Source: Octopus vulgaris
Lineage: Eukaryota
NCBI GenBank assembly: GCA_951406725.2
Contig: OX597825.1
Location: 69,688,001-69,752,000 of the forward strand
Direction: 5' to 3'
Length of the DNA stretch: 64,000 bases
The translations under genes were made by a program, and so were the position numbers. Shown here piece after piece: positions 2,998 through 56,348 of the stretch. The notes under the pieces were generated by a model. It was not told the origin of the DNA and made no database searches. It worked only from the letters and a program-made list of their open reading frames with translations. The first letter of the stretch is position 1, and each line of letters starts with the position of its first letter.

Positions 2998-3626
2998 AAA
3001 ACCACATGTCGCCGCTTTAATTTTTTAAAAGAAATCAATAGCAATAATTATTTTCATCATTAAGAAGTGGATAATGTATGACGCTAATGAGTACATCGGC
3101 TAAAATGTTAAGACGCGAAAATCAAAATTATTAAGACAGATATGCTAGAGAATAAAGAATTACGCACTTTTAATTACAAAGCAGTGCATAAGTGTGCACA
3201 TCCACACGCTAGTTTGATGATATGTCACTCCAATCTTTGCAATCGCACATATCCTGCATCATAACACATGGAACCAATTAAATTGTAATGCTTTAGACGC
3301 AGGATGGTACTTAAATCGTTGTAAGAACTAATAAAGATGTGCTAAATTCATTATTAGATTTCATATTTGAATTACATATTTTATATTTGAAATATTTCAC
3401 ATTTCTTATTGGAATTATAGATTTTCAGTAGTTATAGTGATACATTAATAAATGTATATTTTTATTGTTTATCTTTTAGTTGTTATTGTCACTGGATTGC
3501 AGGTAGACTGTGACACGACTGGGAAGGCTTAAGTCGAAACAAAATCAATCTGACGTCGGCCTGGGGTTTTATTTTAAAGCCTGATGCTTCCTCTATCTTT
3601 CTCTCTGCTGAAGATGCAGCACGGAC

Positions 3627-3676
3627 TTTGTCAGTGAACAGGTCGCGGATTTTAGCGACGAAAATATTTTGACAAA
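3627..3676 (+). ncRNA. Minimal type I hammerhead ribozyme motif, G3-C8 core variant
   Basis: TTTGTCA | GTGAACA | G GTCGC-ggatttta-GCGAC | GAAA | ATAT T | T | TGACAAA: perfect 7-bp stem I, 5-bp stem II, palindromic stem III (AATATT). Confidence 0.75.
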
Positions 3677-3756
3677 TTAAACTTAAATGTTGAAGTGAAT
3701 CGAACGGCTTTTGTGTGTTTCTTAAATGGCTTATAAACACCTTCCACGCTGCAATT

Positions 3757-3806
<50 letters not shown>

Positions 3807-4194: not shown

Positions 4195-4778
4195 TATTAT
4201 ATACATATATGATTTTTAATAATATATTATTATTAGTATTAGGAAATCAATATCAAAACTCCTCAGAAAGATATACACGTGTGAAAAATAATTGTTGTAT
4301 TAAAAATACATAAATAACTAAATATAAATATGTATAAAAATATATGTAGATATGTATAAGTATAAATACTACATTACACATTATATATTTTTAATTATAA
4401 AGGCGGCGAGCTGGTAGAAAGGATAGCACGCCGGGCGAAATGCGTAGCCGTATTTCGTCTGCCGTTACGTTCTGGGTTCAAATTCCGCCGAGGTCGACTT
4501 TGCCATTCATCCTTTCGGGTCGATAAATTAAGTACCACTTACGCACTGGGGTCGATGTAATCGACTTAATCCGTTTGTCTGTCGTTGTTTGTCCCCCTCT
4601 GTGTTTAGCTCCTTGTGGGTAGTAAAGAAATATATTTATAGTTATACATATTTACATTTTTATATCTATTTATTTATATAGTTTTAATACAATTATTTTT
4701 CACACGTGTATATCTTTCTGAGGAGTTTTGATTTCTTAATATTAATAATAACATATTATTAAAAAATATATATGTATA
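4195..4778. repeat. AT-rich inverted repeat (arms ~4195-4330 / ~4660-4778) interrupted by a SINE
   Basis: 'aaaactcctcagaaagatatacacgtgtgaaaaataattg' vs 'caattatttttcacacgtgtatatctttctgaggagtttt'. Confidence 0.8.
4400..4632 (+). mobile_element. tRNA-derived SINE family B (Nin/Deu-like central domain, octopus OR-type)
   Basis: 'aggcggcgagctggtagaa...ggttcaaattccgccgaggtcgactttgcc..tcatcctttcgggtcgataaattaagtacc...gtgggtagtaaagaaa'. Confidence 0.9.
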
Positions 4779-5593
4779 TCAATTTACCACTCTAAAGTGT
4801 GATATTTTTATTGACTCAGAATAATATATGATGAAGCAGACCTCGGCCAGATTTGAACTAAGACTGCGGATAGAAAATAATAATCGCGAGTCATATTAAA
4901 CAAAGAGCTCAAATCTATTTTGATTCGAATTCTTTCCCTTCGATAGGTTCATTCTTTCAACCACTTCTCAGTAAGTTCCACCTGATCATATTTTATGAGC
5001 ATCACAAATCGAATCCTTCAGCTGATTCTGATTGACATCACCTCAAGAAATAACAGGATATTCGCATGTGGAGACGTCGTCCAATACACTTCCGATAGTT
5101 ACAAAAGTTTTCCGATATAGAAGCTGTAGATGATATAGAAGCCATAAATGGCGAACAGTTGTCAAGAAGGGGTTCCATTGATATTGTACAGAAATGATGG
5201 AATAAAATTTATTCAAATATTTGTCAATCCAAACAATCTTTATTGCATATCAGTTATTCTTCATTATCTGAACATCTTTTTCATAAACTAATGCGTATAT
5301 ATAATTATATATGCACAAAACCAAGGACCCAAAAATGAATATGCTAATTATTCATGGATACAACAACAACATGGAAACCCATGAATATTTATATTTCTAA
5401 AGCAGACAATCGCACATCCTGTATTTAAAATCACGTACACAGATACAGTGTGCGTGCACATATATTGTGTGCGTGTGTGTGCGCGTTTGTAGCTATACAA
5501 GTAGTTGTATTTATCATACATATAAACACACTTTTACACATACACAGACATACACGCACATACACACAAGCATTCATATGTATTCACACACAT

Positions 5594-5639
<46 letters not shown>

Positions 5640-5690
5640 GAGTACATATACATAACTATATATATGTACCCCATATATTTATTAGGAGTA

Positions 5691-5736
<46 letters not shown>

Positions 5737-7659
5737 CCATTACTGGGAGTATGTGCATATATATATATATATATATGCATTATATATATGTATTATATAT
5801 GTATGTATGTATGTATATATGTGTGTGTGTCTGCTCCCAGACTCACAGGTGCACATATATTTAAATAGATATACACATTTGTATGTATGTGTGCGTACAC
5901 GGATATGTATTTTAATGTATGTATAGATAGAAGTGTGTTAAAGCTTGTTGAATAACTGAGAGACATAGAAACAACAACTTGGAAAGATACAACAAAATAG
6001 TTGAAAAAAACTTGGTAATATAAATATAAGAACAAAATTTACTTTTCACTTAGAACAAATAATTGCATGATAATTCACTTTAAAATATTTTCTTCACAAA
6101 ACCAGTAAAACTTGAGAAGGAATAAGGAATCGTTTGAAGCTGAATTTCTTATAAAGTTATAAGCGTTCAGGTTGCTGAAGTGTAACGCACGTGGTACAGC
6201 ATATTGTATTTCTTGGATTTTATCTCAGGTTACTTTTTTGTCAATAGTTAGGGTAAATCTATATGTGTGTGAGGAAAATCGAGTCAGTCTTTGCGTTTTA
6301 CGGTTCTGCTTGGATTGTTTAGATTAGGTAAGTGGACAATTTTCTTGCTGCTTATTCAGGGATGTTTTGTTTGGTCTAATGATGATGGTTTCTTTGATCT
6401 GTTAGTTACCAACATCTTTCCCAGCATCTCTGATTTCAGTCATGATGCTCTGTATCATTTATTTAAATGAGATATATGCAAAATATTTTGAGAAGTAGTT
6501 TCCATGAAATAATAATCGATCATGAGACAGGCCGCACTACTATAACGATTCAATGTAAGTTTTCTTTTGGTTTATCATTCAAAAAGTCCCTCAGGTCGCA
6601 GTTTTCCTATGATCTTCATTCTATGGAAATTTTTGCCCAAAGGTAAATGTTTGGGGTTTTCTTTTGAAGGAAGTTAACTAAAAGATGTACGTAATCTTTA
6701 CCATTCGTCTTTTGTAATTTCAAGATTTAAATATCTTAAATTCCCAATTCTAAATTCCTAATTCCCAATTCAAATTTTCCGTTAAATATTTAACTGCTTG
6801 GTAATTCAAACAGGGTTTGTTGCATAACGTGCTTGACATATTGAGATTAAACTTTTTGTTTTAGTGTAAAAGGCAGATATACCTTTATTCTGTCGAATTT
6901 AAGATCTTGGCAAATGCACTTAATATTTTATTTCTCACTCGCATATGGATAGAAATTTCTACTACGACAAATAAATGACATTCCCTTTACTGGAATATTC
7001 TGCTGTAATGTGATATTTGCTCATCCGTTGATTCTGATGTGTTATATAGGTTTTTGCATAAAAGGAAATATAGAATTGTTTCTATACTTGAATAAATTGA
7101 TAAACTGGAAACGTCCAGAGCTGAAATTGATACATAGACCTCATATATGAATTTTATGAATCACCTACTGCTTTAATACAAGCTCTATATACTATCCTTT
7201 TTCAGCAGGCATCTCCCTTTAGGTAGCAATTTATTACATATCTATTCTTGCATTTACGTTCAATTTGTGGGTTATGTTTATATTTCCAGGCTTTATTTAA
7301 TGTCTTGTGTTTCCTAAACTGATGTATCTGACTTAAACATAACTTTTATTATCTCATGGTATCTATGGAATATACAGGAATGTTTGTGTGTATGCTTGTT
7401 TGTGTATGAGTATATTTTCACATAAGCAAACATCTATAATAGTTACACTCCTATATTATTCTTATATGCATATGTATCTTATATGCATTTTTCGATAAAG
7501 GTACGTACAGCCCTCAAGCAAAGGATAATTACGGTTTCATACCTTATAAGAACTCACCACACATTTAAAACCTAGAAGACGATCTTATAAAGTTAGTAAA
7601 AAAATGTAAAATTCAACCAAAAATGCAAGTTCCAACACACATCACAGACAGAAAGTTCT

Positions 7660-55744: not shown

Positions 55745-56348
55745 TTTCTTATTTCTTTATTGCCCACCAGGGGTTAAAATTAGAGGGGAACAAACAAGGA
55801 CAGAAAAACGGATTAAGCCGATTACATCAATCCCAGTGCGTAACTGGTACTTAATTTATCGACCCCGAAAGGATGAAAGGCAAAGTAGACCTCGGCGGAA
55901 TTTGAACTCAGAACGTAAAGACAGACGAAATACCTATTTCTATTTCTTTACTACCCACAAGGGGCTACACACAGAGAGGACAAACAAGGTCAGACAAACG
56001 GATTATATCGACCCCAGTGCGTAACTGGAACTTAATTTATCGACCCCGAAAGGATGAAAAGCAAAGTCGACCTGGGCGGAATTTGAACTCAGAACGTTGC
56101 GGCAGGCGAAATACCTATTTCTTTACTACCCACAAGGGGCTAAACACAGAGAGGACAAACAAGGACAGACAAACGGATTAAGTCGATTACATCGACCCCA
56201 GTACGTAACTGCTACTTAATTTATCGACCCCGAAAGGATGAAAGGCAAAGTCGACCTCGGCGGAATTTGAACTCAGAACGTAACGACAGACAAAATGCGG
56301 CTACGCACTTCGCCCGGCTTGCTAACGTTTCTGCCAGCTTGCCGCCTT
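55745..56348 (-). mobile_element. Tandem trimer of SINE B
   Basis: One full copy (56108-56348) plus two 5'-truncated copies joined at 'gaaataggtatttcg'. Confidence 0.85.

Follow-up and report, generated by a model that had tools for sequence, protein, structure and literature searches.

The 64-kb window analysed here, a single stretch of 64,000 nucleotides of Octopus vulgaris genomic DNA, carries a hammerhead-like motif within a short repeat (3612–3760, plus strand), together with three regions (2881–2995, 4401–4600 and 55750–56296) that we take to be SINE-like repeats, the last of which is made up of three tandem copies of a 181-bp unit and is related to the 4401–4600 repeat. All parts of the motif were read on the plus strand. 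The 5′ arm of stem I (3627–3633) pairs with its 3′ arm (3670–3676) through 7 Watson–Crick pairs, and is followed by the core G3 U4 G5 A6 A7 C8 A9 (3634–3640), in which the 3–8 pair is swapped, by an inserted G (3641), and by a 5-bp stem II (3642–3646 paired with 3655–3659) with an 8-nt loop that differs between subfamilies of the repeat. Beyond stem II lie G12 A13 A14 (3660–3662), the palindrome AATATT from A15.1 (3663) to U16.1 (3668), predicted to form a dimeric helix III, and U17 (3669), the cut being predicted between 3669 and 3670. The residue numbering at 3660–3669 follows the established hammerhead convention. On inspection of the sequence, every hammerhead part listed in a preliminary description of this DNA was found in its place. 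That description had counted two core deviations and read them as one compensatory swap, a reading that the lineage comparisons below bear out; it overlooked the G inserted at 3641, which separates A9 from G10.1 and makes a third departure from the canonical core.

The motif has the features of a minimal type I hammerhead, namely stems I and II, U4 G5 A6, A9, G12 A13 A14 and A15.1–U16.1, as well as a palindromic region for dimer formation (AATATT) in place of helix III. A Watson–Crick 3–8 pair is also present as G–C, the canonical identities C3 and G8 (CUGANGA) being replaced by G3 and C8. The cleavage triplet UUU satisfies the NUH rule (PMC8495972). The minimum free energy fold contained stems I and II (z −3.4, 1 of 200 shuffles being equally good), and it gives no information on the strand because a similar z is obtained for the minus strand. 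A structural descriptor allowing any Watson–Crick 3–8 pair had one match in the 64-kb window, the motif site, and no match in 300 simulated 64-kb sequences, whether applied in strict or relaxed form. A search of the motif against Rfam returned no hammerhead match at the gathering threshold or at E ≤ 10.

The repeat that holds the motif is a solo 149-bp piece of the pLTR of a Penelope-like element (PLE), belonging to subfamily F1 and spanning unit positions +1 to +149. A genome search with 3460–3760, in which 40 of 1050 candidates were scored, returned near-identical matches to 3612–3760 only, and the identity to this interval was 100% at 37 other loci among those scored. The repeat therefore begins at 3612 and not, as had been supposed, at 3485; the segment 3460–3605 had no match in the same 40 scored candidates of 1050, nor to the element. 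Just upstream, 3606–3610 (plus strand) is a 5-bp inverted match to 3617–3621, possibly a fold-back remnant like those preceding other copies, though it may be due to chance. Downstream, 84 nt separate the 3′ arm of stem I from position 3760, where the (TA)n microsatellite that served as target begins (3760–3803, strand not applicable), in agreement with the junction described earlier. The full pLTR unit is 207 nt long, so that the window copy is without a 58-nt tail, and the unit is 98.6–99.5% identical to the pLTR of copies bearing an open reading frame (ORF). Copy number, which the preliminary description had proposed to establish by search, was high: a whole-genome pattern count gave 5,705 matches with G3 versus 180 with another letter at position 3, and most of the 100 listed among these 180 were single-letter decays of the same families.

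The same description had proposed a PLE-type terminal repeat and a search for its autonomous partner. This partner was located, and encodes a reverse transcriptase (RT), a Zn-finger linker and a GIY-YIG nuclease. It is represented by a complete pLTR-body-pLTR copy (L253), by an open frame of 1025 codons that contains YVDD, CX3CxxC and GIY-YIG motifs (L254) and by one of 838 codons whose end lies about 1 kb upstream of the motif (L054); 7 of 29 other fetched loci run upstream into a common 1.2-kb region and the GIY-YIG coding end. In the pLTR-ORF-pLTR layout the motif lies in sense within both repeats, and an in-frame ATG is found at unit position +187. The closest protein match was an Octopus vulgaris reverse-transcriptase-domain protein (54% identical). 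Pfam returned nothing significant for the partner ORF itself and found RVT_1 in 3 and GIY-YIG in 4 of 34 aligned homologs, while a PDB profile search gave a weak RT match and nothing else. Searches by tblastn for a PLE ORF found none near the loci of the older families F3 and F4 described below, and none elsewhere in the window.

The single ORF with RT and C-terminal GIY-YIG domains is that of an EN+ PLE, as are the partial tandem, the inverted 5′-truncated copies and the one-sided tail (L253, L055 and the end mapping below), and we regard the assignment to the PLE family as close to certain. The linker that separates RT from EN conforms, as CX3CxxC, to the CX2-5CxxC linker of Neptune, which is shared with Nematis. 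Likeness to the EN+ PLEs of these two clades (Craig et al. 2021, PMC8557442) extends from the order of RT, linker and C-terminal GIY-YIG to partial tandems, inverted 5′-truncated copies, a one-sided tail and microsatellite targets; it is drawn from domain order and linker, and the octopus tail differs in measuring 58 nt instead of 30–40.

Minimal hammerheads of PLEs, defined with an inserted nucleotide and a palindrome, were reported by Cervera and De la Pena (2014, PMC4209133). Like these, the octopus motif lies in sense in a pLTR, has no helix III but a palindrome from 15.1 to 16.1, and carries a nucleotide between A9 and G10.1, a G10.1–C11.1 pair and a U17, which is common among them. It differs from them in having a G–C 3–8 pair, the published natural variant being U3–A8, in the identity of the inserted base, which is G where the consensus is H (G in 1 of 56), and in a longer, perfect stem I of 7 bp. 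When we counted the hammerheads in Fig. S3 of that paper, G3–C8 occurred in 0 of 56, U17 in 24 of 56 and UUU in one, from the oyster Crassostrea. The UUU triplet, which had been called atypical, was also found in 5 of 13 descriptor matches beside RT relatives in metagenomes; it has precedent in PLE hammerheads, though a rare one, and conforms to the NUH rule.

Conservation of the swapped pair was examined in 102 sampled copies, 37 of which were classed as F1, 37 as F2 and 28 left unclassed. Divergence from the column majority was 1.4% in F1, the young subfamily, and 4.5% in F2; the former value, together with the 1025-codon open frame, agrees with the recent activity proposed earlier. Of 207 columns, 14 differ between the two subfamilies; loop II holds 4 of these, and the core, stems and palindrome hold none. 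G3 was present in 28 of 29 F1 and 27 of 27 F2 copies, and C8 in 28 of 29 and 24 of 29, respectively. As F1 and F2 differ by only about 7%, the lack of change in the core carries little weight on its own. F3, a much older family, could be aligned along the pLTR, and retained C8 in 20/20, G3 in 15/20 and U17 in 17/20 copies; its stem I has a G–C pair where F1 has T–A, and its palindrome is 4 nt long. In F4, another old family, which was retrieved with a pattern fixing the motif flanks, stem II and the start of stem I are as in F1. Its copies are decayed, with majority C3 (7/13) and majority G8 (8/13), a perfect C3–G8 pair kept in 3 of 13, no G3–C8, and G15.2–C16.2 in place of A–U; U17 in 13/13 was fixed by the search pattern.

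Relatives beyond the octopus families carry the other forms of the pair. Among 79 metagenome loci encoding RT relatives there were 13 descriptor matches, all in sense, of which 7 had C3–G8, 6 had U3–A8 and none had G3–C8, and a metagenome pattern scan for the G3–C8 motif gave 0 matches. In the closest relatives, L266 and L274, the motif lies just after the ORF and has in common with the octopus motif the inserted G and a 6-nt palindrome. The six U3–A8 minimal hammerheads (L313 at 1939, L317 at 4994, L318 at 2324, L319 at 938, L331 at 1456 and L333 at 3054) have an AATT palindrome, five of them with UUU, and adjoin distant RT relatives in metagenome contigs. Since G3–C8 is fixed in three lineages that differ in age, and C3–G8 or U3–A8 is found in F4 and in the RT-adjacent relatives, we conclude that the 3–8 pair covaries between lineages. 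Judged from these sequence comparisons, C3–G8 is likely to be the ancestral state and G3–C8 a derived and long-kept one, the swap probably being a single evolutionary event. Natural covariation of this pair is already known from U3–A8 hammerheads (Perreault et al. 2011, PMC3088659; also PMC4209133); that change consists of two transitions, whereas G3–C8 is a full reversal of purine and pyrimidine. G3–C8 itself was found in print as an engineered variant only (PMC3884650, PMC8495972, PMC11167929). No natural G3–C8 hammerhead turned up in the literature searched, which did not include the largest of the surveys of PLE hammerhead variants (Lunse et al. 2017), and a passage search of an octopus repeat annotation (PMC13282606) gave no mention of hammerheads.

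The ends of genomic copies were mapped in the same 102 anchor-bearing copies, taken in coordinate order from contig C1, the two arms of an inverted pair being counted separately and a small number of loci being present in duplicate. In this sample 5′ ends fell at −2 to +8 in 43 copies, about 58 nt upstream of the predicted cut, while 8 copies reached −5 or beyond and a single copy, an inversion through stem I, had its 5′ end at the predicted cut itself (+59). The 3′ ends fell at +141–151 in 39 copies and at +199–210 in 60, the window copy, ending at +149, being of the tail-less class. The genomic copy ends thus give no sign of cutting, and suggest that uncut RNA served as template. An extra G preceded +1, where the element has T, in 16 of the 21 top-scoring non-full-length copies starting at +1, a score-biased set in which some of the extra G's derive from fold-back arms. 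Sharp +1 starts, often with an extra G before them, as a capped RNA start would give, were seen for instance in L007, L015, L017, L023, L026 and L030. The inverted pairs L137, L141, L160, L182 and L193 meet at about +1, and their two arms end near +149 and near +207 respectively, which suggests fold-back second-strand synthesis stopping short of the tail.

On the basis of these features the following working can be proposed. Transcription would start near +1 (3612) in the upstream repeat and give a capped transcript, as the 5′ pile-up and the extra G indicate, consistent with Penelope having an internal promoter (PMC2377424). This transcript, with the ORF presumably starting at the ATG at +187, would contain two hammerheads about 4.3 kb apart, the AAUAUU palindromes of which could pair as helix III. 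Reverse transcription would begin at internal starts at about +207 or about +149 on (TA)n targets, with mostly uncut RNA as template, so that the cut would be unnecessary for most copies and the window copy would represent a short product of such an internal start. A comparable picture has been drawn for PAc, the Poseidon element of the lizard Anolis (Frangieh et al. 2024, PMC11167929), in which the hammerhead cleaves only with the element's protein, C3G/G8C partly restores cleavage, the prevailing template is RNA that has not been cut, reads ending at the cut are absent, and the tail arises from two internal starts of RT. The octopus element resembles PAc in its two preferred 3′ ends giving a tail, its AT-rich targets and the lack of molecules ending at the cut. 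It differs in that G3–C8 is its natural state and an engineered rescue in PAc, in its Zn-finger linker of the Neptune/Nematis type, and in the start codon, which lies about 130 nt after the cut here and inside the ribozyme there. A further reading of the +1 pile-up as a spliced exon junction has in its favour an intron-like branch point, pyrimidine tract and AG exactly at +1 of the full element; it is ranked lower because no common upstream exon was seen and the addition is a single G only.

We consider it probable, from the sequence evidence as a whole, that the motif is a minimal type I hammerhead of a young, abundant PLE terminal repeat with a lineage-wide G3–C8 pair, and that it cleaves itself after U3669, slowly and in a dimer- or protein-dependent manner. 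Self-cutting is likely to be weak, if it occurs at all. The predicted helix III consists entirely of A–U pairs and is nearly unstable (duplex −0.2 kcal/mol), and a co-fold of two copies gave a different extended duplex instead of the palindrome helix III, both of which speak against activity; a viroid hammerhead was severely impaired by a G inserted at the position corresponding to 3641 (PMC3705267). The main rival, which we hold to be unlikely yet deserving of serious weight, is that of a onetime hammerhead that has lost the ability to cut, its fold being retained in the pLTR as a recognition site for protein binding, promoter function or translation control. The three departures from the canonical core and the weak helix III fit it, as do the copies that extend across the cut site from starts about 58 nt upstream of it, and hammerhead mutants of the lizard PLE were without effect on insertion in vitro (PMC11167929). 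The motif moreover occupies +16 to +65, the region of the internal promoter in Penelope (PMC2377424), so a constraint at the DNA level is possible. A mere recognition site is harder to reconcile with the joint change of both 3–8 partners, with the keeping of U4 G5 A6, A9, G12 A13 A14, U16.1 and a non-G at 17, and with a palindrome that survives a 2-nt change in length; the pattern of kept and co-changed positions tracks catalytic geometry.

That the 207-nt unit represents a non-autonomous retrozyme in its own right, spreading via cleaved, circular RNA, appears very improbable. Most copies are indeed short and without an ORF, few extend upstream of the unit, and animal retrozymes have been proposed to derive from pLTRs (bioRxiv 10.64898/2026.07.22.740005), but the sampled loci contained solo copies or inverted pairs and none of the head-to-tail tandem arrays, with a hammerhead in each unit, that mark non-LTR retrozymes. 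The ends, moreover, lie off the cut site, and the unit hardly differs from the pLTR found in copies with the ORF. A chance resemblance in AT-rich DNA, for which the lack of an Rfam match could be cited, is refuted by the simulations, by the partner element, in which the motif is located where PLE hammerheads sit, and by the canonical hammerheads of the same layout in related elements; we assign it a negligible probability.

The kind of element is known and the core variant is, provisionally, new. Natural covariation of the 3–8 pair gains a third Watson–Crick state, G–C, after C–G and U–A, and the natural core matches a rescue mutant made in the laboratory. We advance only tentatively, as somewhat less than an even prospect, that this is the first natural hammerhead lineage with a reversed G3–C8 pair that combines activity with fixation across thousands of copies that moved recently, the reversal having been kept over several transposition waves. 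Published PLE surveys relied on CUGANGA-type descriptors (PMC8557442), which miss G3–C8 cores; if the reading is true, PLE clades reported to be without hammerheads may therefore hide them. As the family is young, with near-intact ORFs and insertions in thousands, it offers a practical system for studying what PLE hammerheads do.

Two minor observations concern the surroundings of other copies. An open frame of 628 codons with an aspartic-protease-like motif lies beside a truncated PLE copy (L255, minus strand 4559–6442), and is probably that of an LTR retrotransposon. The 1.2-kb 3′ region of the element carries (CATA)n arrays of its own (L054, 7100–7900; L029, 650–1480), and microsatellites are therefore spread by the element besides being targeted by it.
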